64,000 nucleotides of DNA, taken from a virus (Duplodnaviria > Caudoviricetes). The stretch spans positions 61,537-125,536 of the IMG/VR virus record IMGVR_UViG_2695421015_000001; one strand, 5' to 3'. Under the pieces are notes generated by a model. The model was not told the DNA's origin and searched no databases. It was given only the letters and a program-made list of their open reading frames with translations. A program made the position numbers and the translations under genes. This document shows, piece by piece, positions 9,231-64,000 of the stretch; the stretch's first letter is position 1, and each line of letters opens with the position of its first letter.

Positions 9231-9305
9231 GCTGGAATAGCTCAGCGGTAGAGCAGCAGTTTTGTAAACTGACGGTCGGTGGTTCAATCCCATCTTCCAG
9301 CACCA
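9231..9305 (+). tRNA. tRNA-Thr (anticodon UGU)
   Basis: Cloverleaf: acceptor GCTGGAA/TTCCAGC, D arm GCTC/GAGC, anticodon loop TTTGTAA, TTCAATC T-loop, encoded CCA. Confidence 0.95.
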
Positions 9306-10076: not shown

Positions 10077-10277
10077 ATGAAGAAGATCGCAGTTATCGCG
10101 CTGCTGGCGTGCTCGCTGGGCGGATGCGCGTCCGTCCCTCTCGCCACGGGTCTCGCGGTCGCCGGCGTCGCCATCTCGGCCGGGAGCCTCGCGGTTGCCA
10201 CCGGCACCTTGAGCATGAACGCAGTCCACAACTGCAAGGCTGACGGCGGCTGCAAGGACGTCAAGCTGCCCAAGTAA
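10077..10277 (+). CDS. Small lipoprotein
   Basis: MKK + hydrophobic core + lipobox LGG-C. Confidence 0.75.
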   Translation: MKKIAVIALLACSLGGCASVPLATGLAVAGVAISAGSLAVATGTLSMNAVHNCKADGGCKDVKLPK

Positions 10278-44798: not shown

Positions 44799-45535
44799 TC
44801 GGAGACAGCAACGACATCCTCCAGCGCGTACGGAAGGTACTCCCGCGTCGCTGGTTTTCTTGGGGCGCGCCGATCCGCGACGCCCTTCTTGGCGGTCTCT
44901 CCGACGGCGCCGCGTGGTGCTATTCGTGGATAGGCTACGCGCGCCAGCAGTCCAGGATCGCGACGTCGAGCGGAATATTCCTCGACATCGTGGCGTGGGA
45001 CTTTTTCGGCGCGAATTTCGTTCGACGCTCCGGCGAAAACGACGCATCGTTTCAGCCTCGCATCTTGCAGGAGATCCTGCGTCCGAGACAGACGCGCGAC
45101 GCGATCAGCCAAGTGCTGACGGACCTGACGTCTAAGCCGCCGAAGATCATCGAACTCTGGAACCCGCAGGACTGCGGCGGCTACGGCGTCGCTCAGATGG
45201 GCGGCTACGGCTCGGGCCCCGGCTGCTACGGCTCGCTGCTGTTCGACAACCAGATGCTCGTGTCCGCGTATCACGCACCCACCCAAGGCATCCCGAATGT
45301 CGATGGCTATGGCGGGTACAACGCCGGCTATGGCGTCGGGACAATCGAATATGCCGACCTGTCGCTGATCACCGGCCCCATCACGGACGCCGAGATATAC
45401 GCGCGCGTTCAGCAGACCATCGCGGCCGGCACGATAGCTTGGGTCGCCATTCAAAATCCGCCGACGCTCCTGATTACGGACGAGAGCGGAATCGCACTAA
45501 CCGCCGATAGTGGCGACATACTCGTGGTTGGATGA
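44795..45535 (+). CDS. Baseplate wedge (gpI-like) with C-terminal LITDESG..L..DSG peptide
   Basis: RI.T..G.FLD....DFFG....RR.GE.D..F..RI. Confidence 0.8.
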   Translation: MIGDSNDILQRVRKVLPRRWFSWGAPIRDALLGGLSDGAAWCYSWIGYARQQSRIATSSGIFLDIVAWDFFGANFVRRSGENDASFQPRILQEILRPRQTRDAISQVLTDLTSKPPKIIELWNPQDCGGYGVAQMGGYGSGPGCYGSLLFDNQMLVSAYHAPTQGIPNVDGYGGYNAGYGVGTIEYADLSLITGPITDAEIYARVQQTIAAGTIAWVAIQNPPTLLITDESGIALTADSGDILVVG

Positions 45536-45536
45536 C

Positions 45537-46565
45537 ATGAAAAAACTGACGTGTGCTGCCGTACTGTTGTTCGCCTTGTTCGCGGGCGCTTGCCCGACGC
45601 TGGCACAGACGACCCAGACGCAACCGTTCTCTTCTTTCGTTCTGGGCCTGCCGGCGATCAGCTCGCTCGCCGGAACCGAAAAGATCTTGACGTTGCAGGG
45701 CGGCGTCCCGATGACCTCCACGCCGGAGCAGATTCTCTCGGCCGCCAATGGAGACTGTGCGTTTAATCCATCGAGTGTCTGCACCAAAACCAGCGGTCTT
45801 CCCTTCGCACCATCGGCCACGACCGACACAACCAACGCTGCGAACATCACCTCTGGCACTCTTAGCGCCAACCGTCTCGCCCTGCAGACGGCGTACTTCT
45901 ATGTCGGCAACGCATCGAACAATCCGGTCGGCACCCCGATGTCGGGCGACTGCACGCTGGCGAGCACGGGCGCGGTTACTTGCACCGAGACCCGTGGAGT
46001 TGCGTTCGCGCCCTCGGCCACGACCGACACGACCAATGCCGGAAACATCAGCTCGGGGACGCTGAACCTTAGCCGCCTCTCTCTGCTCCAGGCGCAATTC
46101 TACGTCGGCAACGCATCCAACAATCCGGCCAGCGTACTGATGTCTGGCGACTGCGGGCTGGCCTACACTGGCGCGGTCACTTGCCCCACGTCCAATGGCT
46201 ACGCCACCGCAACACTCAACAAGCCCGATCAGACGGTAAGCGGTGGTGCGAATGTCACGACATTGATTCTGACCGCAGGAAGTTCGCCGACGATAGACTG
46301 TGGCGCTAGACCTTTGCAGTCCATCATAGCTTCTGCGAGCGCGTGGACAATCTATCCACCATCTAGCGATGGTTCCTGCATGTTGATGGTCATTAACAAT
46401 GCGACATCTGGTAGTCCGGCCCCCACCTTTGCGTCCGGCTTCTATGTTGGCTCAAACACGGGCGACGCCATCCCGACGGGCGCTGGTGCGGTTTACATTA
46501 TCTCCATCGTTCGCATCACGGGGCCTACTGGCGCAGCCTCGACCTACTCGATCAAGGTGATCTAA
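45537..46565 (+). CDS. Tail-fibre-like repeat protein with predicted Sec signal peptide
   Basis: MKKLTCAAVLLFALFAGACPTLA-Q; ~68-aa tandem repeat with FYVGNASNNP...MSGDC......VTC. Confidence 0.75.
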   Translation: MKKLTCAAVLLFALFAGACPTLAQTTQTQPFSSFVLGLPAISSLAGTEKILTLQGGVPMTSTPEQILSAANGDCAFNPSSVCTKTSGLPFAPSATTDTTNAANITSGTLSANRLALQTAYFYVGNASNNPVGTPMSGDCTLASTGAVTCTETRGVAFAPSATTDTTNAGNISSGTLNLSRLSLLQAQFYVGNASNNPASVLMSGDCGLAYTGAVTCPTSNGYATATLNKPDQTVSGGANVTTLILTAGSSPTIDCGARPLQSIIASASAWTIYPPSSDGSCMLMVINNATSGSPAPTFASGFYVGSNTGDAIPTGAGAVYIISIVRITGPTGAASTYSIKVI

Positions 46566-47485
46566 TGATCAGGAGCACTCGTCTTCGCTCCGCGATCTTT
46601 GCGCTCGCCGCCTTCCTCGCGCTCTCGCCGAGCGCCGCACAGATCGGCCCGCTGCCCGGCATGGGGCCGATTGTGTTGGGAGGCGCTATTCCTGCGACTC
46701 CGAGCGTCAACTATCTCGTTGTTGCTGGCGGTGGTGGCGGCTCGCGTAACGGCGGCGGCGGCGGTGCTGGCGGCGTGCTCCCCGGCACAGCGTCGGTTTC
46801 CGGAGCATACAGCATCACAGTTGGTGCCGGTGGTGCTGGCAGCGCTGCCTCGGGAGTTAACGGCAACAACGGCGCAAATTCCGTATTCGGTTCGATCACT
46901 GCAATCGGTGGCGGCGGCGGTGGCGGTAACACCGCCAACGGCAATGCGGGCGGTTCTGGCGGCGGCACGGCGGTCAGCTCAACATCATTAGCGGGCGGCG
47001 CGGGCACGTCCGGACAGGGCTACGCTGGCGGCGCAAACTACGCGGCCTCCTACTATCCATCAGGTGGTGGCGGTGGTGCAGGCGGCGTCGGCGGAACCGG
47101 TTCTGGATCACAGTCAGGATCTGGCGGCCCCGGTATAGCTTCCAGCATAACTGGAACATCGACCTACTACGGTGGTGGTGGCGGCGGTGGTGGCACGTTT
47201 TATGGTGGTCTGAACGGCGCTGGTGGAGCTGGCGGCGGTGGCGCTGGCGGAAATGACAACGGCGGCAACGGCATCAGCGGCACGGCGAACACGGGCGGCG
47301 GCGGCGGCGGCGGTGCTGCCGGGCAGACCTACGCTTACAACGGCGGCAACGGTGGCAGTGGCGAAGTCGTCATCTCCTACCCGAACAACTATCGTCAAGC
47401 GTCGGTGAGCGGCTCGGTCTCGTTCTACAACATCGGCGGCAACTACATCTACGTGTTCACCGGTAGCGGCACGATCTCGTTCTAG
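46565..47485 (+). CDS. Glycine-rich tail-fibre-tip-like protein with predicted Sec signal peptide
   Basis: MIRSTRLRSAIFALAAFLALSPSAA-Q; YLVVAGGGGG...Y.ITVGAGG...ANTGGGGGG...GGSG.V.I.Y. Confidence 0.75.
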   Translation: MIRSTRLRSAIFALAAFLALSPSAAQIGPLPGMGPIVLGGAIPATPSVNYLVVAGGGGGSRNGGGGGAGGVLPGTASVSGAYSITVGAGGAGSAASGVNGNNGANSVFGSITAIGGGGGGGNTANGNAGGSGGGTAVSSTSLAGGAGTSGQGYAGGANYAASYYPSGGGGGAGGVGGTGSGSQSGSGGPGIASSITGTSTYYGGGGGGGGTFYGGLNGAGGAGGGGAGGNDNGGNGISGTANTGGGGGGGAAGQTYAYNGGNGGSGEVVISYPNNYRQASVSGSVSFYNIGGNYIYVFTGSGTISF

Positions 47486-47569: not shown

Positions 47570-49303
47570 ATGGACCGCCAGACGATTTACGCTGGCCAGA
47601 TTCCGCTTGAGACGGATCAGCTCAAGCAGTCGCAGAACGCGATGGTCGGCCTCGCCAAGCTGGCTTCCGCCGTGCTCGGCTCGACCACCATCGTCAACGC
47701 ATTCACTGTCACGCCGACGGTGCCGGCTTCTCTCAACGTCATCGTGACGCCGGGCGAAATCTATCAGCTCGAAAATCTCGAGGCGTCGGCGTGGAGCTCG
47801 CTGTCCCCCGACACGCACACCATCCTGAAGCAGGGGGTCATCCTCGACCCCGTGACGCTCGGCATCACGCCGCCGACCACGGTCGGATACAGCCAGGTCT
47901 TCCTCATCGAGGTGCAGTATCAGGACCTCGACACCGGGTCGACGGTGCTGCCGTACTTCAACGCCAACGTCCCCACCGTCCCGTTCTCTGGCCCCGGCAA
48001 CGCCGGCTCTGCGCAGAATACCGTGCGCAAGGGCGTCGCCTCGGTTCAGATCAAGGCCGGTCTCGCTGCGCCGTCCGGCACGCAGACGGCACCCACGGCG
48101 GATGCCGGCTGGACCGGCATCTATCTGGTCACCGTCGCCAACGGCGCGACCACGATCACGTCGGGCAACATCACGCCGGTGTCGGGCGCGCCGTTCATTC
48201 CCGTGACGCTCCCGCAAGTCCCGGCGGGTGTTCAGTCCGGTCAGTGGCTGTACGGCACCGACACGGGCGGCGTGAACGCCATGGTGGCGAACGTCACGCC
48301 GGTCCCTACGACGCTTACCCCCGGCATGACCGTCCACATCAGGGCGGCCAATTCCAACACGGGCGCAACGACCTTTAACCTGAACGGCCTCGGCGCATCG
48401 GCCGTTCACCGCGCCAACGGCGCGGCCTTGTCTGCCGGCGACATCAACGCCGGCATGGTCGTCGAACTTATCTGGGATGGTTCGAGCTGGCAGATCGCCA
48501 ATTATTTCGGCTTCACCTCCAGCACGGTCAACAACAACACTTACACGCTGTCGATCCCCTATGCGGCGGACTCGAGCGGCGTAGCCAACTCAATCGTGGT
48601 CGCTCCCAACCCGGCGCTCACCGCGCTGACGGCGGGCAACGAGCTTATGGTCAAGCTCGCCAACACCAACACGGGCGCGACGACGATCACCGTCAACTCT
48701 CTGGCGGCGGTCTCTGTCGTCAACCCCAATGGTTCGGCGCTCACCGCGGGACAGATCGTCGCCGGCGAAATGCTTTGGCTGCTCTACGACGGCACCCACT
48801 TCCAGGTGTGCAATCCCAGCGTGGCCACCGTCAACGTCTACAACCTCACCAACGCGCCCTTCGCCGACGTCAGCACCTTCTACGGGTCCGGTTCTGTTGA
48901 AGCGCCGTATGCCACTCACACCTTCGCGCCGTTCACGTCGGCGACGATTGGAAGTCAGGGCAACGTCGCGTTCTCTTCGGGAGAGATCGTGATCGAGACG
49001 GCTGGCCGCTACCTGTTCGCGTACTCCACCGACGTCTACAGCGTTTCCGGCTCCGATCCCTACGCCGCGTTGTCGTCAGGCTGGATACTTTGGAACGGAG
49101 CCGTTCAGTCGCCGTCTGGAAACGGTCTCCAGATCGTCAACGACTCTGGTCCTTACATCAAGGAGGATTACGGCGGCGGATGCTGGATACAGAGCCTTAG
49201 CGCCGGCGACACCATCGCGTTCGCTGTCTACCAGGTTAACGGTAGCTCGCTGACGTACGATGTTGGCTACGGCTTCAATGTAACCGTGACGAGGGTGCAC
49301 TAA
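47570..49303 (+). CDS. Main tail fibre protein
   Basis: MDRQ.IY.GQIP.ETD baseplate-attachment N-terminus; two NTGA.T...N...L.AG.I.AG repeats; beta-sandwich-like tip. Confidence 0.85.
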   Translation: MDRQTIYAGQIPLETDQLKQSQNAMVGLAKLASAVLGSTTIVNAFTVTPTVPASLNVIVTPGEIYQLENLEASAWSSLSPDTHTILKQGVILDPVTLGITPPTTVGYSQVFLIEVQYQDLDTGSTVLPYFNANVPTVPFSGPGNAGSAQNTVRKGVASVQIKAGLAAPSGTQTAPTADAGWTGIYLVTVANGATTITSGNITPVSGAPFIPVTLPQVPAGVQSGQWLYGTDTGGVNAMVANVTPVPTTLTPGMTVHIRAANSNTGATTFNLNGLGASAVHRANGAALSAGDINAGMVVELIWDGSSWQIANYFGFTSSTVNNNTYTLSIPYAADSSGVANSIVVAPNPALTALTAGNELMVKLANTNTGATTITVNSLAAVSVVNPNGSALTAGQIVAGEMLWLLYDGTHFQVCNPSVATVNVYNLTNAPFADVSTFYGSGSVEAPYATHTFAPFTSATIGSQGNVAFSSGEIVIETAGRYLFAYSTDVYSVSGSDPYAALSSGWILWNGAVQSPSGNGLQIVNDSGPYIKEDYGGGCWIQSLSAGDTIAFAVYQVNGSSLTYDVGYGFNVTVTRVH

Positions 49304-49843
49304 ATGTTGACCTTGACCATGACAGCCGCTCAAGCGTCGGTGTTTTGCACGCGGTTCAGCGCAACTGAACCGGCGGCTAATCCGGTGTGGAACGGAACCG
49401 CGCTGCTGATCCCCGATGCCTACGCGACCGCCGCGCAGACGTTGTTCGCCGCCGGCTTTGCGCCGACGGCGGCAGAACTGATCTCCTACGCCAACACCAA
49501 GCAGTCGAAGATCATGGGCGGGGGCACGCTGGTGTCGGTCGGCAACGGCGTCCTCGTCGAATGTTCGACTGACCCCTCCAGCCTTGTGCTGCTGCAGGGG
49601 GCTGCGTCGATCGCTGCGACCTCTCCGACGGCCACGTTCAATTGGGTGCCGACCAACGGCACCCCGATCACGCTGGTCGCCGCGCAGATGACAGCAATGT
49701 TCGCCTCTGTGTCGACCTTCCTGCAAGCAACCTTCACGACGCTCAGTCAGGTCATCACCGCTATCAACGCCGGCACCATCACCACGACGGCGCAGGTCGA
49801 CACGCCGCCGTCGCCGATCCCGGCGTGGCCGGTTAACTCGTAA
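49304..49843 (+). CDS. Tail fibre assembly protein (DUF4376-like)
   Basis: Follows the fibre; W...NG..I.L.A.Q......V....Q..F...AI.AGTITT..QVD. Confidence 0.65.
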   Translation: MLTLTMTAAQASVFCTRFSATEPAANPVWNGTALLIPDAYATAAQTLFAAGFAPTAAELISYANTKQSKIMGGGTLVSVGNGVLVECSTDPSSLVLLQGAASIAATSPTATFNWVPTNGTPITLVAAQMTAMFASVSTFLQATFTTLSQVITAINAGTITTTAQVDTPPSPIPAWPVNS

Positions 49844-49848
49844 CCCTC

Positions 49849-49872
49849 AAAGCCGCCTTCGGGCGGCTTTTT
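49849..49872 (+). terminator. Intrinsic terminator
   Basis: aagccgcc-ttcg-ggcggctt-ttt. Confidence 0.8.
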
Positions 49873-49887
49873 CATTCGGACATCACC

Positions 49888-50529
49888 ATGGATCAAGCGC
49901 TTTTCGGCGCCGCTTTGACGCGGCTGTGGCCGCACGCGGACATGCATATCCCCGGCCTGACGGCGGCAATGATCGCGCAGGCGCCGGTACTGTTCCCGAA
50001 ATACGGTCTGACCTCGCCGGTGGCGATCGCCATCATGATGGGCGAGTTCACCGAAGAGTGCGCCGGCGGGGAGCAGGTCGAGGAAGACCTCAATTACCGC
50101 GCCCCCGTGCTGCATTCGCAGTGGCCGACGCACTTCACGATGGCTCAGGCGCTGGAGATGCAGCACCAGCCGCGCCTGATCGCGAACCAAGCCTATAACG
50201 GGAGGATGGGCAACCGCATCGGCACCGATGACGGTTGGGACTATCGCGGCCGCGGTCCCGCGCAGAGCACCGGCGAAGAGGCGTACGCGCTGCTGACCAA
50301 GCTGCTCGGCGTCGACTTCATCAACCATCCCGAACTCATCAACACGCGCGAGCACTTCTTCGAGGCCGGCATCGTCGACTTCGTCAAGATTTGCGGCTGC
50401 CTGCCTTACGCGCAGCGCGGCGACGAAGTGAACGCCACGCGCCACCTCAACGGCGGCCTGATCGGACTCAAGCAGCGCGAGGTCTCGACCTCGATGTGGG
50501 GGCACGCCTTTGGCGTGGTGCTGCCGTGA
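49888..50529 (+). CDS. Endolysin, glycoside hydrolase family 19-like
   Basis: EE.LNY...IAN.AY.GRMGN....DGW.YRGRG..Q.TG...NGG.IGL..R. Confidence 0.88.
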   Translation: MDQALFGAALTRLWPHADMHIPGLTAAMIAQAPVLFPKYGLTSPVAIAIMMGEFTEECAGGEQVEEDLNYRAPVLHSQWPTHFTMAQALEMQHQPRLIANQAYNGRMGNRIGTDDGWDYRGRGPAQSTGEEAYALLTKLLGVDFINHPELINTREHFFEAGIVDFVKICGCLPYAQRGDEVNATRHLNGGLIGLKQREVSTSMWGHAFGVVLP

Positions 50530-50726
50530 TGACGCAAGCTGCCGTGAAGACATCGATCGACAGCGCGCTCGGCTCCCAGCTTGACCGGCTGTTCGGGGTT
50601 TTGGTTACGAACCTGGAAACGCAATCCGCGGCCGAAGCGACCGCCGAATTTCGCAAGGGCCTCGAGTTCAGCCTTCGCGCGCATGCCATCGCGACCTCGG
50701 TCGCCGAAGAACTCATCAAGGGCTAA
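50529..50726 (+). CDS. Small hypothetical protein
   Basis: TGATG coupling; C-terminal part of ORF 50235..50726. Confidence 0.6.
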   Translation: MTQAAVKTSIDSALGSQLDRLFGVLVTNLETQSAAEATAEFRKGLEFSLRAHAIATSVAEELIKG

Positions 50727-50728
50727 AA

Positions 50729-51196
50729 ATGATCACGATCCGGTTCGTTACCGGACACGACCTCGTGTCCGACGGCATTCGCGCGTTCGAATATGGCTTT
50801 TGGGCAACACACGTCGAAGCTCTGATGCCGGACGGGACGTTGCTGGGCGCGCACGCTGAGGGCGGCGTCCTGGCTCGCCCGCACGACTACGACAAATCCG
50901 TGTTTACCCGGGAGCTTTATGTTTCGATCCCGGCAACGGCTGCACAGACGGACGCCTTCCATAGCTTCCTGCGGTCGCAGATCGACAAGCCATACGACTT
51001 CAAGGCGATCGCCGGCATCGCGCTAGAGCGAGACTGGCAGTCGACCAATGCATGGTTCTGCAGCGAGCTGCAGGCCGCAGGCCTCTGTCGTCCGGAAGTG
51101 GCGATCTTCCCGCCGCATCTGGCGACCGAGTTCAACCACGTTACCCCTCGCGATTTGCTGCTGATCGTGAGTGGTCGCATCGACCTGGCAGCGTAA
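50729..51196 (+). CDS. Permuted papain-like (NlpC/P60, YiiX-type) enzyme
   Basis: THVE (His) precedes KPYD...WFCSEL (Cys). Confidence 0.8.
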   Translation: MITIRFVTGHDLVSDGIRAFEYGFWATHVEALMPDGTLLGAHAEGGVLARPHDYDKSVFTRELYVSIPATAAQTDAFHSFLRSQIDKPYDFKAIAGIALERDWQSTNAWFCSELQAAGLCRPEVAIFPPHLATEFNHVTPRDLLLIVSGRIDLAA

Positions 51197-51246
51197 CTCG
51201 AACCACCCGCGTTCGCAGCGGGATACCCCCACAAGGAGACCGACCG

Positions 51247-52101
51247 ATGAAGTTCAATATCAGTATGGCCATTCTCTTGCTGGCCTTTCTGATCGATGTT
51301 GAGGGCGCGATCGCCAACGACAAGATCAGCCTCGTTGGCATGGTGCCAGCCGCCTGGATCGAAGCGATCAAGGCGTGGGACAAGTTCCTGCTGTTTTGCG
51401 GCACCAGCCTGATCGGACTGCTCGCGGCCCCCGGTGCCTTCACCAAGAGGGTTGCCGGCGCAGCGGCGGCGGTTCTCGTCGCCTTCGCCCTGCTGACCGC
51501 CACGGTCAGTACAGCGCACGCCGCCGACGTCGTCACCACGACTGCAACGACGAGCGCGGCGGTCACGCCAGCGACGCAGAACAACTGCCTCATCAACTCC
51601 TGCACCGGCTGGTATGCTGGTGTCGGCTTGACCGGCAACGGCACCAACGCCGACATCCTCGGCAGCGGGCTCAACGGGTCGGTTTTTGCCGCGGGCGGCA
51701 TGCTGGACATGCACGGCGGCTACCAACTCTGGAACGGCACCTATTTCGCCGCGGTGGAAGCCGGTCTCGGATACCAGTTTCAGAACGGTGCGATTGCGGT
51801 CACCACCAACAACCTGACCGGCTACGAGATCGTGAAGTTCGGCGGCAACCTTAGCGGCCTAGTCAACAACGCATCGAGCCCAATCGCCATTCCGAGCTCG
51901 CTGTCCAATGTCCTGATGTCTCCGTATTTCGCTATGGGCGCGATCCAGCGTGATGGCGTGTCGCAGTGGGCGACCGGCGCAGGTGCCGCGTTCCTGCTGG
52001 CGACGAACTGGGACTTGGACATCCGGTACCTGTACGCGCCGGCGGCCGGCAATGTCGGCTCCGACAACCTCGTCACGATCGGTCTCAACAAGCACTTCTG
52101 A
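51247..52101 (+). CDS. Holin-like TM segment + internal signal peptide + Omp25/RopB-like beta-barrel
   Basis: Two N-terminal hydrophobic segments, then KRVAGAAAAVLVAFALLTATVSTAHA-AD, then GWYAG...GGYQ...WATGAG...VTIGLNKHF with terminal Phe. Confidence 0.75.
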   Translation: MKFNISMAILLLAFLIDVEGAIANDKISLVGMVPAAWIEAIKAWDKFLLFCGTSLIGLLAAPGAFTKRVAGAAAAVLVAFALLTATVSTAHAADVVTTTATTSAAVTPATQNNCLINSCTGWYAGVGLTGNGTNADILGSGLNGSVFAAGGMLDMHGGYQLWNGTYFAAVEAGLGYQFQNGAIAVTTNNLTGYEIVKFGGNLSGLVNNASSPIAIPSSLSNVLMSPYFAMGAIQRDGVSQWATGAGAAFLLATNWDLDIRYLYAPAAGNVGSDNLVTIGLNKHF

Positions 52102-52162
52102 GTGCCCGTCCACACAGGCGGGCTGGCTCGTCGGCAGCCCGCCGACAATCAAAGGAAAGATC

Positions 52163-52348
52163 ATGCGAATGCACCATGACTCGTTCGTGAACATCCCGCT
52201 TGCAGTCGTCTGGATGGCCTCGGGGTACTGGCTTCATCTCTTCGAGAGCGGGTCGTGGTTCTTCGGCACGCTGCTTCCCTACATCGGGGTCGCGGTTGGT
52301 GGCCTGCAGATCTTCCTCCTGACGCGAAAACTCAGGCGCCCGAACTAG
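52163..52348 (+). CDS. Putative holin with Met-Arg-Met dual start
   Basis: 61 aa, two hydrophobic segments, basic C-terminus RKLRRPN, AAGGA RBS. Confidence 0.6.
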   Translation: MRMHHDSFVNIPLAVVWMASGYWLHLFESGSWFFGTLLPYIGVAVGGLQIFLLTRKLRRPN

Positions 52349-52385
52349 GGCGCCTCTTTCAATCATCACCGCAATAGAGGCTTAA

Positions 52386-53060
52386 ATGGTTCCCCACGTT
52401 GTTATCATCGGCGCCGACAAGGGCGGCGTCGGCAAGACCACCGTTTCCCGCACCTTCATGGACTACTTCCAGTCCCACGGTATCAGCGTCCGCGCGCGCG
52501 ACACCGAATACCCGCAGGGCGTCCTGCAGCGTTTCCATCCCGACAAGACCAAGATCGTCAATCTCGAAGAGAGCGACGACCAGGTCGAGGTGTTCGACAA
52601 TCTGCGCGACGCGCAGGTGACGTTGATCGACATCCGGGCCGGGCTCCTGTCGAAGACCCTCGCGACGCTGTCCGAGATCGGCTTTCTTGCCGGCGCGAAG
52701 GACGGCCGGCTACGGATCTCGGTGGTGCACGTCATCGGCTCGAACAAGGCTTCCTTCGACGAGATCGAAGCCACCGCCAGCGCGGTGGAGGGGGCCAAGC
52801 ACTATGTGCTGCTCAATCACATGAACAAGTCGAAGTTCATGGGGCTGCCCGCTTCAGTCAGAGACCCCATCATCGTGCCGATGCTCAACGAACTCGCGGC
52901 CGACACCGTCGACCGCCTCGGTATCGGCTTCGATGCCTACTGCTCCGGCATCGGCCTCGAGGCCGGTCAGACCCCGTCGAGCGTTCTGGCTGGCTATATC
53001 CGCGCCTGGAAGACCCGCGTCTTCGCCGAGTACGACCGGCGCGCGCTCAACGCACTCTAA
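52386..53060 (+). CDS. ParA/MinD-family P-loop ATPase
   Basis: Deviant Walker A DKGGVGKTT. Confidence 0.8.
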   Translation: MVPHVVIIGADKGGVGKTTVSRTFMDYFQSHGISVRARDTEYPQGVLQRFHPDKTKIVNLEESDDQVEVFDNLRDAQVTLIDIRAGLLSKTLATLSEIGFLAGAKDGRLRISVVHVIGSNKASFDEIEATASAVEGAKHYVLLNHMNKSKFMGLPASVRDPIIVPMLNELAADTVDRLGIGFDAYCSGIGLEAGQTPSSVLAGYIRAWKTRVFAEYDRRALNAL

Positions 53061-53082
53061 CCGATCGACCAGTCCTTCCTCC

Positions 53083-53110
53083 ACGGCGCGGCTTCGGCCG
53101 CGCCGTTTTT
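53083..53110 (+). terminator. Intrinsic terminator
   Basis: acggcgcggc-ttcg-gccgcgccgt-tttt. Confidence 0.8.
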
Positions 53111-53129
53111 GTTTGCTTATGAGGTGACC

Positions 53130-54356
53130 ATGCCGAGACCGCCGCTTTCTAACGAAGTTCTCACTGCGACGGTGGAGGCGTACAACGCCAATGACAGAAG
53201 TTGGATAAGGACCGCGCAAGCTCTCGGTATAGGGGAGCGCACCGTAGGGGATAGACTGAAACAGGCCGCCAAGCGCGGCCTTCTTCTTGACCACCCGCCG
53301 GCAAAGCCGGGTTTCGAGATCACCAAGATCACGACCGCCCCCGACGGGGGCCAGCACATCACCGAAAAGCTAGAACACGGCGACGTGTTCAAGATGCCGA
53401 AGACGCACTTCCTCGGCAAGATGACGGTCAACCGCGACGCCAGCGGTCGCGTCATTCAGGACTGGATCAGAGCCGAAGTTGACGACGTGGCGCGCGAGGC
53501 GGCCATGCGCGCCGCCGTTGCCGCGTTCTCGTCGGAGATCCCCCGCGCCGAGCCTGTCCACCTCAATCTCATCGGCAACGCCGACCTCGTCAACCAGTAC
53601 ACCGTGACCGACTACCACTTCGGCATGCTGTCGTGGAAGGAGGAGACGGGCGGGGACTGGGATCTGAAGATCGCCGAGAAGCTCTGGATCAATTGGTTTG
53701 CTGCCGCGATCCGGCAGTCGCCGGATGCCGAGCAGGCCATCCTGGCGCAGCTCGGCGACCTCCTGCACTTCGACTCGCTGAAGGCGATCACGCCGGCGCA
53801 CGGGCACATCCTCGACGCCGACTCGCGCTTTGCCAAGATCGTTCGTGTTGTTATCCGCTGCATGCGCGCCGCCGTTCGCATGCTGCTTGAGAAGCACGAC
53901 CACCTGCATCTGATCATGGCGGACGCCAACCACGACGAGGCCAGCGAGGTCTGGCTTCGCGAGATGTTCGCCGCCCACTTTGAAGACGAGCCGCGGATCA
54001 CCATCGATCGCACGCCGGGGACGTACTACGCCTACGAGTGGGGTCTGACCTCGCTGTTCTACCACCACGGCCACAAGAAAAAGATGAAGGACGTCGACTC
54101 GACGTGGGTCGGGCGCTACCGGGAAATCTACGGGCGGACCAAATTCGCCTACGGCCACACCGGGCACCTCCACTCCGACGAGTTGATATCGACCAACCTG
54201 ATGAAGGTGGAGCGTCACGAGACGCTGGCGGCGCCGAGCGCCTTCGAGGCCAACGGCGGCTACAACTCCGGCCGTTCGGCCAAGGTCATCACGTACTCGA
54301 AGCGCTTCGGCGAGGTCGGGCGCGTCACACTGACCCCGGAGATGGTTGCCGCATGA
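53130..54356 (+). CDS. HTH + calcineurin-like metallophosphoesterase
   Basis: TAQALGI..RTV HTH; D.H.G, GD..H.D, ANHD, HHGH and GH.H motifs. Confidence 0.8.
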   Translation: MPRPPLSNEVLTATVEAYNANDRSWIRTAQALGIGERTVGDRLKQAAKRGLLLDHPPAKPGFEITKITTAPDGGQHITEKLEHGDVFKMPKTHFLGKMTVNRDASGRVIQDWIRAEVDDVAREAAMRAAVAAFSSEIPRAEPVHLNLIGNADLVNQYTVTDYHFGMLSWKEETGGDWDLKIAEKLWINWFAAAIRQSPDAEQAILAQLGDLLHFDSLKAITPAHGHILDADSRFAKIVRVVIRCMRAAVRMLLEKHDHLHLIMADANHDEASEVWLREMFAAHFEDEPRITIDRTPGTYYAYEWGLTSLFYHHGHKKKMKDVDSTWVGRYREIYGRTKFAYGHTGHLHSDELISTNLMKVERHETLAAPSAFEANGGYNSGRSAKVITYSKRFGEVGRVTLTPEMVAA

Positions 54357-57705: not shown

Positions 57706-58097
57706 ACCCGCCGAGCTAGTCAGCGGGCTTTGTCTTTCTCTTTTTTCTTTCGTTTCAAAACGTCGGCCTGGCTTCGATAGGCCAGCGCTACGGCACGAAG
57801 CCCAGCCGCGCGATCAGGGTCCGACGCGCGCATGGCCGCTTGCTCCGCCTTATCCGCCTGTTTTCGAAAGAACTTAGTTTGCTTGACCATGGTGACAACG
57901 GGATTGGGAACGCATGGGTTTCCGTTTCAATATGGGCCTCTTCCGTTGCAAATGACACCGCGCGGCACCTGAAATTTTAGTTTAGTACTTTTCCCGTCGC
58001 AATCGGGTCGGCCTCGATTGACCTGCGCGGAGAGCTGGGGTCCCCTCGTTTACGTTTTCGTTTCGACCAGCCCGCGATCCTTTCCGAGTAAGTCGGT

Positions 58098-58793
58098 CTA
58101 GCTTGGTTCGCCGCGTCGGCGGTCAATCACAGCGACAGAGTGCACACCATCTAGTTCGTCTAGCTTTGCAACAAAGGTTTTGATGTCTTGCGACGAAACC
58201 TTGCTCAAGAGGACAGTGACCTCTTCGATGCCGTCGCGAGGCGTAGTGAGAAACCGTTTAATCTGGCCAGTGCGAATATTGAGTGTTCGTTTGACAACCT
58301 CCGGCGTAACAGAGGCTTGCGTCGCTTCAATTTTCAGTCGGCAGCTTTGATTGCGAGCGCGATAAGCTTCTTCCAGCGGCTTTACTCCAGCGAGAATAAC
58401 AATGATGACAGCGGTGGAAACGCCAGCCGCGAAATAGAGACCGCCACCAACGGCCAAACCAATTGCAGCGACCGTCCAAATACTCGCCGCTGTCGTCAGA
58501 CCCCTGACTATCTCACCTCGGGCCAGAATTGCGCCGGCACCAAGGAAGCCAATGCCTGAAACCACCTGTGCAGCAACCCGCGAGGGGTCAAGAACGACGT
58601 TTTGAGAGGAAAGGCTGTCTCGGAACCCAAAGGCGGAGACGATCATGATCAGGCAAGCACCAACGCAAACCAACATATGCGTTCGGATACCAGCGGCCCA
58701 GAGAAGTCGCTCGCGTTCAAATCCGATGACGCTGCCGAATACCGCCGCTACTAGCAGGCGAGCAACGACGTCCAAGTTGGGAAGCGTGTTCAT
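58098..58793 (-). CDS. mgtC: MgtC/SapB family protein
   Basis: IG.ERE....AG.RTH.LV..G, DPSR.AAQVVSGIGFLGAG.I, GLTTAA.IW. Confidence 0.92.
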   Translation of the reverse strand: MNTLPNLDVVARLLVAAVFGSVIGFERERLLWAAGIRTHMLVCVGACLIMIVSAFGFRDSLSSQNVVLDPSRVAAQVVSGIGFLGAGAILARGEIVRGLTTAASIWTVAAIGLAVGGGLYFAAGVSTAVIIVILAGVKPLEEAYRARNQSCRLKIEATQASVTPEVVKRTLNIRTGQIKRFLTTPRDGIEEVTVLLSKVSSQDIKTFVAKLDELDGVHSVAVIDRRRGEPS

Positions 58794-59311
58794 GCTGACC
58801 TCTTTTCATTCAGAAAATTCTCCGCACCGTAAATTGAACCGCGTTCGTCGAGGGAAAACAACCCGGCGTCGAAATTGGATACCAAATAGGCAGCCGACGT
58901 GCCGGCATCTTGACAGTCGGCACGTCTGGTCTAAGAGGGCTGACGACGACGATGATCGACGAAAACTTGGAGCGGTTCCTGCCGTCGAGCCTTGCCCGGT
59001 GTCGGTCAAAAGCGCCGAAGCTTCCTCAACGAGACTGAGGCGATCCGCAAGCTCGGCATCTCGATCATCCGCAGCTACCTCCTCCGCCGCCTCTTCGCGA
59101 CCCATGTCAAGCGGTTTGCCGCTTGGTGCGAACGCATCGTGGCGTTGATCCCGGAGTACTGAAATTCGGAAGGTAGCGTAAGCCCGTGTCCAGTCGGGAA
59201 ACTGCCCTCACGCGCCTGAACGATCATCTCATGAGCAGTTCAATCCGAACATCCAGCGCCGGGATGACGTGGAAGGCGTTGGAAGCTGTCCCGATCTCAC
59301 GGATGATCCGA

Positions 59312-61564
59312 TTAGGCGATCGCCTCTAGCGCGACGGCAGCCGCACCTTGAGTGGGATCGGCGGGCTTCTGGGCTCCCATCATCATCTTATAGTGCCCGT
59401 GATGATCTGTCTTTTCGAAGATGCGGCGGAATACGTCGAGATAGCGAGCCACGACGCTGTCGTCAGCGGAGATGTAGAGATCGTCGTGGGCGCTGTGCGA
59501 TCCGTCATTGACCCAAGAGAAAAGTGACGTGCAGAGTTGCTGGTCCTTGCCCTCGAACTGCGCGATAATATCGTCCGTGTCGACGTTGCCGAGAATCTTG
59601 AAATAGTTCTCGATGATGCGCCTGAGCGTGTTCTGGATGGTCATGTTCGAGCGGTTCGGGTTCCGCACTTCCGCCCAGAGTAATTCGTACGACGTCTTAA
59701 TCGGGTTGTGATTGTAGCCGACGACCTTTGAGACGCCGTCGACCTTGCGGACGATCCAGAAGGTCTCTTGCGCTCTGCATTCCGCTCCCCGGTTGCGATC
59801 GAACGATACCTCCTTGTGAAAGTAGATGTTGTGAGTCAGCAGGAAGACTTGCTTGATCTGGCCTTTGCCATCGGAAGCCTCTTTGAGCAAACGCTTGATC
59901 AGGTTGCTGACGATGAACAGCACGTCGCTGTCCAGACTCGACACCGGATCGTCAAACACGACAATTCGGTCGGAGGTGACATCCGACTCTGATACGCTGC
60001 CGCGTAGCAGGTGGTAAAAATAGAGGAAGCAGACGAAGCTTTTCTCGCCTTCGCTAAGCGTCGCCGCCGCGTTGTCACCGCCGTTGCGGACAATTTCATA
60101 GAGGTGGCCGCGCTCGCCCGCCGTTCTCAGCGTGAAGCCAGAGAAGCCAAACGAGGTCAACAAGGAGTTGATCGCGCTCACCGTCGGCTGAACGCTTGTG
60201 ACTTTTTTTTCCAATTCACGCAGCTCCGCCCTTGCGGTAAGCAGCTGGCCCTCTTTCGCTGCGAGGCCTGTAGTCAGTCCTCCGACGGCCTTGTCGAGCG
60301 CGTCCCACTCCGCCCGGTACTTCTCGATTGTCGCGCTGTACTCATCGAGCAGGTACTTCCAGATTTGGCCGATGAGCGTGCCGCGCTCGGCGGCAATGTT
60401 GTCTACGAGCGCGTTATGAGCGGCAATTGAGGCATTGGCGGTGGCGATCCTGGCGATAATCGGCTCCGCCAGTTCTGCGAGCGGTTCCAACGTCACCGGC
60501 GTGCTGGGCTCGCGCTTCTTGGCTTCGAGCAGGCGCTTGTTCACCGCGAGGCGGGCGGCGATTCGATCGACATCTGCGCGCAGAAGCTCCCGGTCGACGT
60601 GACGATTGTCGTGGGCGATAGCTTCTTCGAGCATCTTCAAAGTCGAGCCAGCGACGACATCGTATGTCTCAAGCGCAGCGGCGATCGACGCCATATCGTT
60701 GAGGAAGGTTTCGTCGAAATAGGCATTGAGCCGCGCGGCAAGCTCCGCCTCGACTTCCTGCTGACAGAAAGGACATTGAGATCCATGGCCGAGATACTGC
60801 AGTCCTTGCCTAACCCAATCGCTGTTGCCAAGTCGCCGAATTAGGGCGGCGACATCGACATCTTCCTTGCCGAGCACTTTCTTAGCGAGCACGGGCGCGC
60901 GTTCGACCGCCAGTAGATCGGTTATGTCAATAGTGCCTATCACGGCGTGGCGCTCGAGCCCATCTTCAAACAACGTCACGGCCTTGCGCTTCAGCTCATC
61001 GACGGTCACGAGCGGCGCCGTGTTGGCCGCCAACTCTACCAGCACCTTGTCGCAGAACTTCGACTGCGAGTTTCGGACGCCTGAGAAGGCGTCCTTAAAA
61101 TAGGGATCGTACTTGCCCTTGATCTTCCAGCAGTCAGATTCGAACTGGGCGCGCAGCGTCCGTAGCTCTCCCCGCTTACCGGACGACGAGTCCACCACGC
61201 CTAATGTGCCGTTCAGCTTCGCAATACCATCCTCAAGGTCTTCGACCCTGGCTTTGGCTTTCTCGATCTTGTCGAGCGTGTCGCTCGCGGCCTCTCCAAG
61301 GGTAAAAATTCCGGGAAGTGGAAGCTGCGGCACAAAGTTGCGGGTCACGAAGTCGCTGTTGTAGACGCAACAGGCCAGCGTCCGACCCTTCTCCCACGTC
61401 AAGGCGCAGGAAGCATAGGAGCTAGGATTATAAATGACGCGCGAGATCGTTGTCTTGCCGGTTCCGTTCGTGCCGAAGATGAAATTGATCGCCTTCAGCG
61501 ACGAGAGCTTCTCGCCTTCACTCGAATAGCTTGCGTTACCCGCAATCTTAATTTCCTGAAGCAC
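59312..61564 (-). CDS. rloC: RloC-like ABC ATPase with zinc hook and C-terminal HEPN domain
   Basis: GTNGTGKTT, CPFCQQ, LSEGEK, DDPVSSLD, LTHN, RRIIENYF...NDGSH. Confidence 0.75.
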   Translation of the reverse strand: MLQEIKIAGNASYSSEGEKLSSLKAINFIFGTNGTGKTTISRVIYNPSSYASCALTWEKGRTLACCVYNSDFVTRNFVPQLPLPGIFTLGEAASDTLDKIEKAKARVEDLEDGIAKLNGTLGVVDSSSGKRGELRTLRAQFESDCWKIKGKYDPYFKDAFSGVRNSQSKFCDKVLVELAANTAPLVTVDELKRKAVTLFEDGLERHAVIGTIDITDLLAVERAPVLAKKVLGKEDVDVAALIRRLGNSDWVRQGLQYLGHGSQCPFCQQEVEAELAARLNAYFDETFLNDMASIAAALETYDVVAGSTLKMLEEAIAHDNRHVDRELLRADVDRIAARLAVNKRLLEAKKREPSTPVTLEPLAELAEPIIARIATANASIAAHNALVDNIAAERGTLIGQIWKYLLDEYSATIEKYRAEWDALDKAVGGLTTGLAAKEGQLLTARAELRELEKKVTSVQPTVSAINSLLTSFGFSGFTLRTAGERGHLYEIVRNGGDNAAATLSEGEKSFVCFLYFYHLLRGSVSESDVTSDRIVVFDDPVSSLDSDVLFIVSNLIKRLLKEASDGKGQIKQVFLLTHNIYFHKEVSFDRNRGAECRAQETFWIVRKVDGVSKVVGYNHNPIKTSYELLWAEVRNPNRSNMTIQNTLRRIIENYFKILGNVDTDDIIAQFEGKDQQLCTSLFSWVNDGSHSAHDDLYISADDSVVARYLDVFRRIFEKTDHHGHYKMMMGAQKPADPTQGAAAVALEAIA

Positions 61565-62227
61565 TTAACGCCCCCAGACTCTGTCAAATGATCACGCCTA
61601 ATTTTTGAAGACACATGCTATCGCCCGTTCCGCGAAATAGCGAGCCAAATCTACCGGAGGGTGCAACTGACTTCGCAAGGCAGTTTCCTTCGGACGTTGT
61701 GACGACTGCAAGCCGCGTTGCCGCTCTGAAGCACTCAAACCACCCACCTGACAGGCTCGGTCTCGGCCACCTGCATCGGCGACCTTGGCGAGATGTCTAT
61801 TCAGTTTTGCGAGCTTCGGCGCCTAACGATGTTAAGGACCCGGGGCTGCAGGCGATCTCGACCCGTCAAGCCGCCGAGCTGACTCTTTGCTCAGACGCTG
61901 CGGACGCGCTCGAAGTGGGCTTATAGGGGCCGAGAAGACGTCCCGCGTCACCTGATTGTCGACATCCAGCAGGCTCTTGCCGATCACCGGCAGCTAGGTC
62001 GAGCAATCCAGGTTATCCTCTGTCATGCGTGTACCTGCGGTTGCGAATCGCAGGCGCCATGCTGGCGATCGCAGGTTGTAAAAACAAGGGAATCCCGGGG
62101 CGGGGGGACATTTATCCCCGAAAAAAGATCATTGCTTTCAACCTCTGGATCAGCGCGCCCGCACCTGCTATCGCTCAACCTGACGGCGAGGTGAGCGGAA
62201 AGCCGCGGCCGGCAGCTGGGGGCGTGA

Positions 62228-64000
62228 ATGACCGAATTGAATTTCAAAGGCAAAGAATTTGTTTACAACCATCACTTAGCGGTACCGTTTCGTCCCCTCG
62301 TACCACATTCTAAAAAAGGCATCGGTCCGGTCGCGTTTGATGGCAATCTGATCATTCACGGCGACAACCTACACGCGTTGAAGGCGCTGCTGCCGCTCTA
62401 CGCCGGCAAGGTGGACTGCGTCTACATCGATCCCCCCTACAATACGGGCAACAAAGAATGGAGCTATAGCGACAACGTCAACGCGCCGATGATCCGCGAG
62501 TGGCTCACCGCCAATCCAATTTCGCTAGATGATGGTCTACGCCACGATAAATGGTGCGCCATGATGTGGCCTCGCCTTCGGATGCTGGGTGAATTGCTCT
62601 CGCCTGAGGGAGCAGCGTTCATTTCCATAAATTCGATCGAGTACGCTCGTTTAAAATCTATGTGCGACGAAATATTCGGAGAAGATCAGTACATTGGTGA
62701 GTTTGTTTGGAAATCCCGAAACAACAAGGACAACAGAAACGAGAATGGCCTATCGAATGATCACGAATTTGTTCTGATATATGGCGGAGGACTAGACGGA
62801 GAACTCCGATCAGCCGCGGACTATTCCAATCCAGATGGCGACAATCGTGGGCCGTGGGCCAGCGCCAATATGGTTGGCTTGGCCTCTAAAGATAAGAGGC
62901 CAAACCTCCATTTTGATCTCATCAATCCTGCGACAAAGATTAACTATGGCTGCCCTAAGCGCGGATGGCGATTTGAGCCAGCCACGATGAAACGGCTGAT
63001 TGCCGAGCGACGCATTTTATGGCCCGAAAAAAAAGATGGTCGTCCGCGCCGCAAATCTTTCCTTTCAGAACTCGACGCACGAACCAACGTATCGTCGGTC
63101 ACTAACGGTGTATTCTACACGAACAATGGCTCAAAAGAATTTGGCCAGATTTTGCCTGAAGCAGAGTTTCCATTTCCTAAGCCTATCGAGCTAATTCAGT
63201 TCATACTGTCACTGTTCGAAAGACAGGACCTTTTGGTTTTGGATTCTTTTGCTGGCTCTGGTTCTACCGCCCATGGCGTACTACAAGCCAACAAGCTCGA
63301 TGGGGGTAGTCGCCGCTTTATCCTTGTAGAAATGGAAGATTATGCAGACAAACTTACGGCGGAGCGTGTTCGGCGAGTCATAAAGGGCTACAAATTCGAG
63401 GGAACTCAAAAGACCGAACTGCTGCGTGAATATTTAAACTGGCGGGCGATTGAGCGTGCCGAGGATCTTGTTCAAAGGGTAAAGGGCATCGAGAACCTGG
63501 AAGGCCCAGACTTCGACCGTGTGACCAAGCAAGTGAAGGGCGGAGAACTGATCGTCACGGGCGAAAAGGCGGTCACCAAGCGCGCGGAAGGCCTTGGCGG
63601 CGCATTCACCTATTGCACGCTGGATGACCCCGTCGAACTGGACAAGGTGCTTAGTGGCGAGTCGCTACCGTCCTATGCCGCCATCGGGACCGCGCTGTTC
63701 CACATGGCGACCAATCAAGCGCTCGATCCGAAGGCGATCCGTCAAAAGGATTTCTATCTCGGCGAGACCGAAAGCCAGCATGTCTGGCTGATCTACAAAC
63801 CCGACCTCAATTGGCTGAAAACGCCCACGGCGGCCCTCACCCTCGATCAAGCCAAGATTTTTGCCGGGACTGATCCCGAAAAGCGCCATCTGGTCTTTGC
63901 TCCGGCCCGGTTTGTCAGCCAGAAAATGCTGGGCGAGCAGAACTTGCCCGTTGAATTTGTGCCATTGCCGTTTGCTCTGTACCGCATCGACCGGGGCTAA
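62228..64000 (+). CDS. mod: Site-specific amino-DNA methyltransferase (type III Mod-like, beta class)
   Basis: GDNL..LK.L, YIDPPYNTG, FP.PKP, LDSFAGSG.T; AT-richer central target-recognition region. Confidence 0.9.
   Translation: MTELNFKGKEFVYNHHLAVPFRPLVPHSKKGIGPVAFDGNLIIHGDNLHALKALLPLYAGKVDCVYIDPPYNTGNKEWSYSDNVNAPMIREWLTANPISLDDGLRHDKWCAMMWPRLRMLGELLSPEGAAFISINSIEYARLKSMCDEIFGEDQYIGEFVWKSRNNKDNRNENGLSNDHEFVLIYGGGLDGELRSAADYSNPDGDNRGPWASANMVGLASKDKRPNLHFDLINPATKINYGCPKRGWRFEPATMKRLIAERRILWPEKKDGRPRRKSFLSELDARTNVSSVTNGVFYTNNGSKEFGQILPEAEFPFPKPIELIQFILSLFERQDLLVLDSFAGSGSTAHGVLQANKLDGGSRRFILVEMEDYADKLTAERVRRVIKGYKFEGTQKTELLREYLNWRAIERAEDLVQRVKGIENLEGPDFDRVTKQVKGGELIVTGEKAVTKRAEGLGGAFTYCTLDDPVELDKVLSGESLPSYAAIGTALFHMATNQALDPKAIRQKDFYLGETESQHVWLIYKPDLNWLKTPTAALTLDQAKIFAGTDPEKRHLVFAPARFVSQKMLGEQNLPVEFVPLPFALYRIDRG

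Follow-up and report, generated by a model that had tools for sequence, protein, structure and literature searches.

Class II holins, such as S21 of phage 21, have two transmembrane helices with both ends in the cytoplasm, and spanins occur either as two components, as in Rz/Rz1 of phage lambda, or as a single chain, as in gp11 of phage T1. In Bradyrhizobium japonicum, the cytochrome b/c1 precursor FbcH is cut at an internal signal sequence. Lom of phage lambda is a member of the Ail/Lom family. One preprint abstract puts phages without a spanin gene at about 15% and describes gp28 of phage phiKT, the 'disruptin', as a cationic antimicrobial peptide that acts as a non-spanin outer-membrane disruptor (10.1101/515445). 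Here we describe a lysis-type cassette in a prophage-bearing stretch of DNA of 64,000 nucleotides (positions 61,537 to 125,536 of IMG/VR virus record IMGVR_UViG_2695421015_000001), hereafter the window, in which a single open reading frame (ORF; 51247-52101, plus strand, 284 aa) joins an inner-membrane hairpin, an internal signal and an outer-membrane barrel. The join of these three parts in one protein is real. Our preferred reading, to which we assign a probability of about 0.5, is that the fusion is made as a polyprotein, from which signal peptidase I releases a phage outer-membrane protein that could be tethered to the wall, leaving behind a holin-type inner-membrane piece. The parts are of known kinds; their join and the spanin-less setting of the cassette are undescribed in the literature searched, where we found no description of a holin joined to an outer-membrane barrel.

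In its size, its two-helix topology and its place beside wall enzymes that lack signal peptides, the N-terminal module of the fusion, which we call NTD-A, resembles class II holins and the Phage_holin_10 family (PF23987, the family of Pam3 gp28), a domain that paralogous fusions themselves carry. Unlike holins, NTD-A forms a separate family, has only Thr-Lys-Arg in place of a charged tail, and runs on into a third helix and the barrel. Like the spanins, the fusion has one inner-membrane and one outer-membrane part, and it holds the cassette position that is occupied in loci L052 and L083 by a lipoprotein and an anchored protein; unlike them, it has neither a lipobox nor a periplasmic coiled coil, its outer-membrane anchor is a barrel, and a canonical cleavage site lies between the parts. 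FbcH provides a precedent in layout, with one ORF giving a multi-helix inner-membrane protein, an internal signal peptide and an exported second protein, although FbcH is respiratory, its second product is membrane-anchored and it has no phage context. The disruptin case, as that abstract describes it, is similar in that phages without spanins use other outer-membrane-acting proteins, whereas the protein of the window is a barrel and not a cationic antimicrobial peptide (10.1101/515445).

The fusion ORF is preceded by an AAGGAG ribosome-binding site (51233-51238, plus strand) 8 nt 5' of the ATG at 51247. The frame remains open on the 5' side as far as the ATG at 51052, a stretch that overlaps the gene for a 155-aa protein. 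NTD-A (residues 1-65, 51247-51441) is a holin-like inner-membrane module with two predicted helices, at residues 5-23 and 35-60, and with conserved P34, W37, W44 and G52. It is followed by Thr-Lys-Arg and the internal signal peptide (residues 66-92, 51442-51522), where a signal peptidase I cut is predicted after AHA (92|93), and then by a stretch that would begin with a mature Ala-Asp N-terminus (residues 93-120, 51523-51606) and consists of a Thr/Ala-rich linker and an invariant C-x4-C, a low-confidence coil in the model. The rest (residues 121-284 and the stop codon, 51607-52101) is the eight-stranded outer-membrane barrel. Kyte-Doolittle hydropathy peaks at residues 5-23 (2.16), 47-65 (1.87) and 69-87 (2.29), the third hydrophobic segment reading ...TATVSTAHA|AD. 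The original prediction, a reading of the DNA made ahead of any search, had described about 65 residues with two hydrophobic segments, a classical internal signal (STAHA|AD) with no Met just before it, and a barrel ending in Phe. All four features hold: the C-terminus reads ...NKHF, and codons 34-92, read directly from the sequence, contain no in-frame ATG, GTG or TTG and no stop codon. A full-length AlphaFold model of the fusion shows three helices, a disordered linker and strands, and is poor (predicted local distance difference test score, pLDDT, of 61), Foldseek returning for it only meaningless rows of the green fluorescent protein type; the barrel was therefore modeled alone. Residues 1-67 gave only generic helical hairpins in VIA-align, and an Atlas search with residues 1-92 gave no usable feature match and only unspecific structure rows.

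Homologs of the fusion were found in 65 clusters by a word-based search, and those that are named all come from Bradyrhizobium strains. Cleavage sites were located by a crude script of our own, which rewards Asp at position +2, so the count of 21 of 22 sites reading 'xD' in the extended forms is biased. These extended forms are the 22 clusters in which the best site by this script lies 81-111 residues from the start; in the remainder the site lies at 17-28, as a plain signal (36 clusters), at 51 (one) or nowhere (six). The N-terminal extensions are of at least three unrelated types, one of them the Pfam family Phage_holin_10, and half of the extended forms (11) have no Met 12-40 residues before the site, the other 11 having one. 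Several independent sources contributed clusters with the same in-frame join, which IMG/VR locus L008 shows as well. Conservation of the fusion, which the original prediction had put forward as a check, is thus seen in 22 of the 65 homolog clusters.

Some of the other fusions to the same barrel match Phage_holin_10 above its cut-off of 27 bits (P0004 at 42.6, P0011 at 31.8 and P0058 at 29.8 bits), and a homolog of the P0055 N-terminal domain occurs free-standing in L012, where it lies some 700 nt upstream of an unfused barrel gene (E 4e-9). In a barrel tree of 66 rows, from which P0025, P0057 and P0059-P0062 were left out as having another barrel or matching in the N-terminal domain only, fused forms are scattered, with at least four changes needed for each type of N-terminal domain, and two unrelated types occur together in one clade of six (support 100/99). 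Gain, loss or reshuffling of the join has therefore happened more than once. An in-frame join of an outer-membrane protein to a holin-type gene that arises or is reshuffled repeatedly is gene-fusion evidence that the parts cooperate. Searches of other collections returned little. The full fusion protein has no tblastn match in 50,697 phage records, and neither the five cassette proteins nor P0004, P0011 and P0025 match NCBIfam. Contig collections were scanned with alignment A3, a closer set than alignment A2, with no match in genome contigs, none in viral contigs and one in a metagenome contig of 1042 nt; a profile of alignment A1 matches no PDB sequence.

NTD-A itself is rare, occurring in four of 401 genomes of the host's family, the host included. 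When residues 1-95 were searched exhaustively with phmmer against 1.84 billion representatives, 13 proteins were returned, counting the query, mostly of 259-306 aa. The partners to which NTD-A is joined are the same barrel, a second and unrelated barrel (P0066, P0025, P0057, P0061 and P0062) and non-barrel domains (P0067 and P0069-P0073), and each join comes after a third hydrophobic segment with an AxA-like end. A word search for short free-standing versions of residues 1-95 found none; the exhaustive search later found three or four, among them P0074, P0075 and P0076 (65-109 aa).

In all five genomic contexts that were read, the NTD-A gene lies in a lysis-type cassette behind a gene of the wall-enzyme type. 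This enzyme is matched to a family in four of the five, namely glycoside hydrolase family 19 (GH19) in the window and Pfam family GH25 in L008, L087 and L089 (39.7, 90.4 and 100.2 bits). The window cassette runs from the GH19 endolysin through a 65-aa protein and an amidase homolog to the fusion. In the case of L008, the GH25 gene is followed by genes for 268-aa and 58-aa proteins, the fusion, and then a match to phrog_2359 'holin' (9.9e-5), whereas in L087 the GH25 gene is followed by a 43%-identical homolog of the window amidase, beside the NTD-A fusion. The neighbor of the NTD-A gene in L088 encodes a 211-aa protein; this and a 202-aa protein of L010 were first taken as endolysin-like, match neither Pfam nor PHROG, and are not counted as endolysins. 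NTD-A is thus a small membrane protein module with at least one transmembrane helix, in a lysis cassette and alongside a signal-less endolysin, as is typical of holins. The presence of Phage_holin_10 in paralogous fusions, the free-standing N-terminal domains and the five lysis-type contexts all lend support to the original prediction of a holin-like part.

Two other features of these loci are recorded here. A class 3 lipase (PF01764, 65 bits; L089, 5492-6286, minus strand) lies between the GH25 endolysin and the NTD-A fusion, where the window and L087 have the papain-like amidase homolog; to find such an enzyme in a Gram-negative lysis cassette brings to mind LysB of mycobacteriophages. Small proteins with one C-terminal membrane helix are encoded directly after an NTD-A fusion or an unfused barrel in L087 (5060-5314, minus strand), L088 (7013-7264, plus strand) and L007 (5574-5897, plus strand), and those of L087 and L007 match phrog_6420, of unknown function (3.1e-18 and 8.7e-5).

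The cassette of the window comprises five plus-strand genes, which lie behind tail-fibre-type genes that extend to 49843 by Pfam and PHROG matches. Spacing is tight, with a TGATG overlap followed by gaps of 2, 50 and 61 nt. The first gene (49888-50529) encodes the 213-aa endolysin, which had been called a GH19 enzyme; that it is an endolysin is borne out by phrog_181 'endolysin' (4.3e-35), whereas the GH19 family model itself (Glyco_hydro_19, PF00182) scores 17.5 bits against a cut-off of 25.5. It has no hydrophobic segment (highest 19-residue hydropathy 1.29). The ATG of the second gene (p66; 50529-50726, 65 aa) overlaps the endolysin stop codon; its product has no hydrophobic segment, no match in Pfam, PHROG or NCBIfam, and no significant likeness to the 58-aa protein in the equivalent place of L008. 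The third product (p155; 50729-51196, 155 aa), again with neither signal peptide nor hydrophobic segment, matches phrog_1128 (6.4e-15) and has homologs in 40 phage records by tblastn. Among the 15 of these that were listed, three are annotated as 'permuted papain-like amidase', a family of the YaeF/YiiX type. In p155 a His (THVEA) precedes a Cys (FCSEL), and both are conserved in the homolog from L087. Since p155 matches no Pfam family, NCBIfam family or PDB sequence, the amidase label rests on the depositors' annotation; the permuted NlpC/P60 enzyme of the original prediction is plausible by residue order and homolog annotation. The endolysin, p66 and p155 all lack a hydrophobic segment, and a holin would therefore be needed for them to reach the wall.

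Behind the fusion lies the gene for p61 (52163-52348), a 61-aa membrane protein with a hydropathy peak at residues 35-53 (1.70), a weaker first segment and a charged C-terminal tail, TRKLRRPN. It matches nothing in Pfam, PHROG or NCBIfam and, by tblastn, nothing in the phage records; five homologs were found, none of them named, and it bears no significant likeness to the protein in the equivalent place of L008. We regard p61 as a candidate second holin or antiholin.

Modeled alone with AlphaFold from a 59-row alignment, the barrel has eight strands (pLDDT 82; predicted template modeling score, pTM, 0.74). The best Foldseek matches are Ail (1.3e-5), the OmpA transmembrane domain (2.3e-5), NspA (1e-4) and OmpX (9e-4), in entries 3qra, 1bxw, 1p4t and 2m06, with template modeling (TM) scores of only 0.40-0.64; the Atlas's own barrel model compares with clusters of the OMP_b-brl family (PF13505) at TM 0.70. 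The window protein has no Pfam match at E<=0.1 and does not reach the PF13505 gathering threshold, which among its homologs is passed by P0058 (34.3 bits, cut-off 28.7) and missed by P0011 (26.5) and P0044 (25.4). The 'Omp25/RopB-like' barrel of the original prediction therefore stands at the level of the OMP_b-brl superfamily, given the eight-stranded model and the match of a homolog to PF13505, and any closer label falls away. With other small eight-stranded barrels of PF13505 type (OmpA, OmpX, NspA, Ail) it shares eight antiparallel strands, a Sec signal ending in AxA and a C-terminal Phe. It differs from them in being made behind a two-helix inner-membrane module, so that the signal is internal and not N-terminal, in lying below Pfam detection, in an invariant C-x4-C before strand 1, and in an unusually conserved first extracellular loop.

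The internal signal aligns with the N-terminal signal peptides of free-standing barrels, that of P0010 ending TTAHA|AD where the window has STAHA|AD. In the 59-row alignment, conservation reaches at least 90% both for Asp2 of the predicted mature protein and for the Ala that precedes the site, and the Cys pair (C22 and C27) is invariant in all 59 sequences. Several outer-membrane proteins of Brucella and Agrobacterium are described as linked to peptidoglycan through an N-terminal Ala-Asp by L,D-transpeptidases (PMC10787603); for such proteins in the Rhizobiales this source cites Godessart et al. 2021. The predicted mature N-terminus of the window barrel is likewise Ala-Asp. It differs from those proteins in being phage-encoded, in owing its N-terminus to an internal cut, and in that the link is putative.

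Conservation within the barrel family is highest in the first extracellular loop as placed by the model (mature residues 38-58, window 51634-51696). This loop of 21 residues contains 11 of the 37 barrel positions that are invariant or nearly so, an unusual degree of conservation for a loop at the surface.

The barrel is phage-borne and not a household outer-membrane protein of the host group. It was found in nine IMG/VR loci; in the host genome it matches only itself, and it was found in none of 400 other genomes sampled from the host's family and, with P0004 as the query, in none of 400 from the genus. The barrel as a copy of a host outer-membrane protein, that is, a receptor mimic, was dropped since the host genome has no paralog, and for the same reason, together with the lack of any match in the 800 sampled relatives, the receptor-blocking, Lom-like part of the original prediction is not supported. 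An unfused barrel follows a GH19-like gene, itself below the Pfam cut-off, in L007, and in L010 and L012 the barrel gene lies among genes for small membrane proteins.

Two lipobox scans across all frames of the whole window found no i-spanin/o-spanin pair, in agreement with the original prediction, and no credible lipobox ORF near the cassette. The same kind of scan recovers a lipoprotein and an N-terminally anchored protein directly after a homologous endolysin in L052 and L083, the L052 pair sitting between the endolysin and a homolog of the exonuclease gene found at 53109 in the window; it recovers no such pair in the cassettes of L007, L008, L010 and L012. The fusion protein has no lipobox by which to be a two-component spanin. 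Compared with unimolecular spanins of the T1 gp11 type, it again has no lipobox, the order of its parts is reversed, and a cleavage site lies between them. The sole credible lipoprotein ORF of the window (10077-10277, plus strand) is 40 kb upstream, at the left end of the prophage, and has no i-spanin-like neighbor.

A long array of small plus-strand genes begins with that lipoprotein ORF, which lies beside the tRNA-Thr gene, and continues as far as the terminase gene. Its product has 66 aa with a lipobox LGGC, and the mature part is Gly/Ala-rich and hydrophobic, with three Cys; the G+C content at third codon positions is 0.88. A role in exclusion is possible for this lipoprotein, as is that of an atypical o-spanin.

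Three things favor the polyprotein: the internal segment belongs to the barrel family as its signal, the cleavage site has the canonical form, and the Asp is conserved. Of the readings offered by the original prediction this one fits best. One gene of the late lysis operon would be translated as a polyprotein whose N-terminus is cytoplasmic, with helix 1 passing outward, helix 2 passing back and Thr-Lys-Arg inside. The third hydrophobic segment would serve as an internal Sec signal, and signal peptidase I would cut after Ala-His-Ala, leaving a three-helix piece of about 92 residues in the inner membrane. This piece, alone or with p61, would be the holin-type component that lets the GH19 endolysin and the papain-like amidase reach the wall. 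The released piece of 192 residues would fold into the outer membrane as the eight-stranded barrel, and its new Ala-Asp N-terminus might be coupled to peptidoglycan by host L,D-transpeptidases, a link that would require the N-terminus to be free. The original prediction added that the NlpC/P60 enzyme might sever such ties between outer-membrane proteins and the wall. Being fused, the two pieces would be produced one for one and at a single late stage. The barrel would then be a phage-specific lysis accessory, most likely at the outer-membrane step that spanins carry out in related prophages. The analysis establishes the open frame and its recurrence, the setting in a cassette, the class of fold and the lack of a recognizable spanin, whereas cleavage, hole formation, wall tethering and any role of the barrel in lysis are inferred. 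If the polyprotein reading is true, a phage uses an internal signal peptidase site to obtain an inner-membrane and an outer-membrane protein from one ORF.

Several observations weigh against the polyprotein reading as a lysis device. NTD-A matches neither the Phage_holin_10 model nor any other family of Pfam, PHROG or NCBIfam, and an hhalign comparison of 19 NTD-A rows with eight rows of Phage_holin_10-type N-terminal domains gave a probability of 0.1%, that is, no profile likeness; the label 'holin' therefore rests on size, topology and position. Other holin candidates occur in the cassettes, namely the phrog_2359 match after the L008 fusion and p61, whose tail is the more classical. The barrel, NTD-A, p66, p155 and p61 were found in none of 40 loci with homologous endolysins, and a link to this endolysin family is therefore not general. 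Unfused barrels lie beside head genes (L005, L006, L011) and elsewhere (L009, L013), a moron-like placement. The type of barrel seems to swap while NTD-A and p61 stay (P0025/P0077 and P0057/P0081), a pattern inferred only from contigs equal in size (P0025 with P0077, P0057 with P0081); such a swap suggests diversifying surface functions over a fixed lysis mechanism. The prophage does carry the lone 66-aa lipoprotein gene at 10077-10277. Finally, we know of no mechanism by which an eight-stranded barrel breaches the outer membrane.

A more specific proposal, which we offer as possible and tentative, is that the barrel is the outer-membrane component of a spanin-less lysis, a third solution besides spanins and the disruptin, delivered as the C-terminal half of a holin polyprotein. 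One barrel would be placed in the outer membrane for each holin subunit stored in the inner membrane, and after holin firing and the action of the wall enzymes the barrels would weaken or tear the outer membrane, perhaps through the conserved first loop or through wall tethers. The second barrel type and the non-barrel periplasmic domains joined to NTD-A would be alternative payloads for the same step.

Small proteins of the T4 Imm type block injection, and bor of phage lambda is a moron beside lysis genes. By analogy, the fusion might be a two-layer exclusion or conversion protein with no part in lysis, in which the polyprotein is cut, the inner piece blocks injection and the barrel alters the surface of lysogens or of cells late in infection. 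We consider this doubtful, though several facts speak for it: the varied places of unfused barrels (beside head genes in L005, L006 and L011, elsewhere in L009), the apparent swap of barrel type between conserved flanks, a best structural match, Ail, that is the fold family of lambda Lom, the hairpins on the 3' side of the gene, and the presence of another holin candidate downstream (p61, or the phrog_2359 match in L008). It fits less well with a fusion gene inside, and not at the end of, a tightly spaced operon, and with a scan of 49000-53200 that returned no sigma-70-like promoter, such scans having little power in organisms like this one. A lysogen would be put at risk by a fusion to modules that elsewhere match a holin family. 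A first extracellular loop so strongly conserved is not what one expects in surface proteins under diversifying pressure, and the host has no paralog to mimic or replace.

A less likely alternative, and in our view an improbable one, keeps the chain uncut. The fusion would be a single-chain envelope bridge, a barrel-based spanin with its three helices kept in the inner membrane and its barrel in the outer one; removal of the wall by the endolysin would let the short linker draw the two membranes together. No spanin pair was found in the window, where relatives have one at that place, and spanins are known in both one-chain and two-chain forms. Directly behind the unfused barrel gene of L010 and of L012 lies a gene for a mostly helical protein (89 and 105 aa) with an N-terminal anchor, which is the gene order of the lipoprotein and anchor in L052 and L083; however, L010 and L012 are related phages and so represent one lineage, and their small proteins match no family. 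The third segment, with its small residues at -3 and -1, moreover has the canonical form of a signal, the same in kind as in free-standing barrels; the conserved Ala-Asp is meaningful only if the N-terminus is free; and the distance from the site to strand 1 is only about 28 residues, by our estimate too short to span a normal periplasm. To our knowledge there is no precedent for the assembly of a barrel with its N-terminus held in the inner membrane. The canonical site and the short linker likewise turn us from the unimolecular spanin of the original prediction toward the polyprotein.

That two genes have been joined by a sequencing or assembly error, or that the barrel has its own hidden start, is very improbable: the 11 extended homologs with a Met 12-40 residues before the site show that some relatives could start internally, but codons 34-92 of the window ORF hold no start codon and no stop, the same in-frame join recurs in several independent sources and in L008, and the exhaustive search finds NTD-A mostly in proteins of 259-306 aa.

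By PHROG matches, the window holds a myovirus-type prophage, with a large terminase at 17185, a portal at 19189, a tape measure at 37720 and a baseplate wedge at 43644; the sheath match at 32276 is weaker than these. The host genome is complete (9.09 Mb) and belongs to a non-pathogenic soil-type bacterium. A tRNA-Thr gene lies at 9231-9305, and in a look for the prophage ends no direct repeat of its end was found.

Three structured stretches punctuate the cassette, all read on the plus strand. Between the last tail gene and the endolysin gene lies a terminator-like hairpin (49849-49870) with a 9-bp stem and a UUCG loop, then UUUUUCAUU (-16.1 kcal/mol, z -3.2), which is not listed by a separate consensus scan. 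The stretch between the fusion ORF and the p61 gene (52100-52146) forms two hairpins with no U-run (-28.4 kcal/mol, z -3.9), and a weakly terminator-like hairpin (52334-52355; -18.6 kcal/mol, z -4.4) lies over the p61 stop codon. Further downstream, a strong terminator-like hairpin (53083-53106) of 10 pairs, nine of them G-C, followed by a T-run, sits after a ParA-like gene (52386-53060) and just 5' of the exonuclease gene at 53109.

Homologs of the endolysin occur in 75 of the 401 genomes of the host's family, often not in prophages, in a fixed chromosomal setting beside a two-component regulator. There, a conserved protein beginning MDWSDLAKQV... separates the endolysin homolog from a response regulator and a histidine kinase (L047, L049-L051, L053, L055, L056, L058, L062, L069 and L073); L058 is a variant with other small ORFs in place of the MDWSDLAKQV... 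protein. These homologs look like domesticated lysis genes.

Elsewhere in the window, a 1033-aa ORF among the head genes (22947-26048, plus strand) has PHROG matches to a NUDIX hydrolase, an RNA ligase and a head maturation protease. In the tail-fibre region, a tandem 201-nt repeat of 75% identity (45780-46181) lies within a 351-aa ORF (45510-46565), and the next ORF (46565-47485, 306 aa) has a signal-like start and long Gly-rich runs. At the right end (58000-64000), G+C content falls to 0.53-0.58, and a minus-strand gene for a 750-aa AAA_13 ATPase (PF13166, 600 bits) occurs together with a DNA methylase gene; this stretch is probably a separate defence island outside the prophage.

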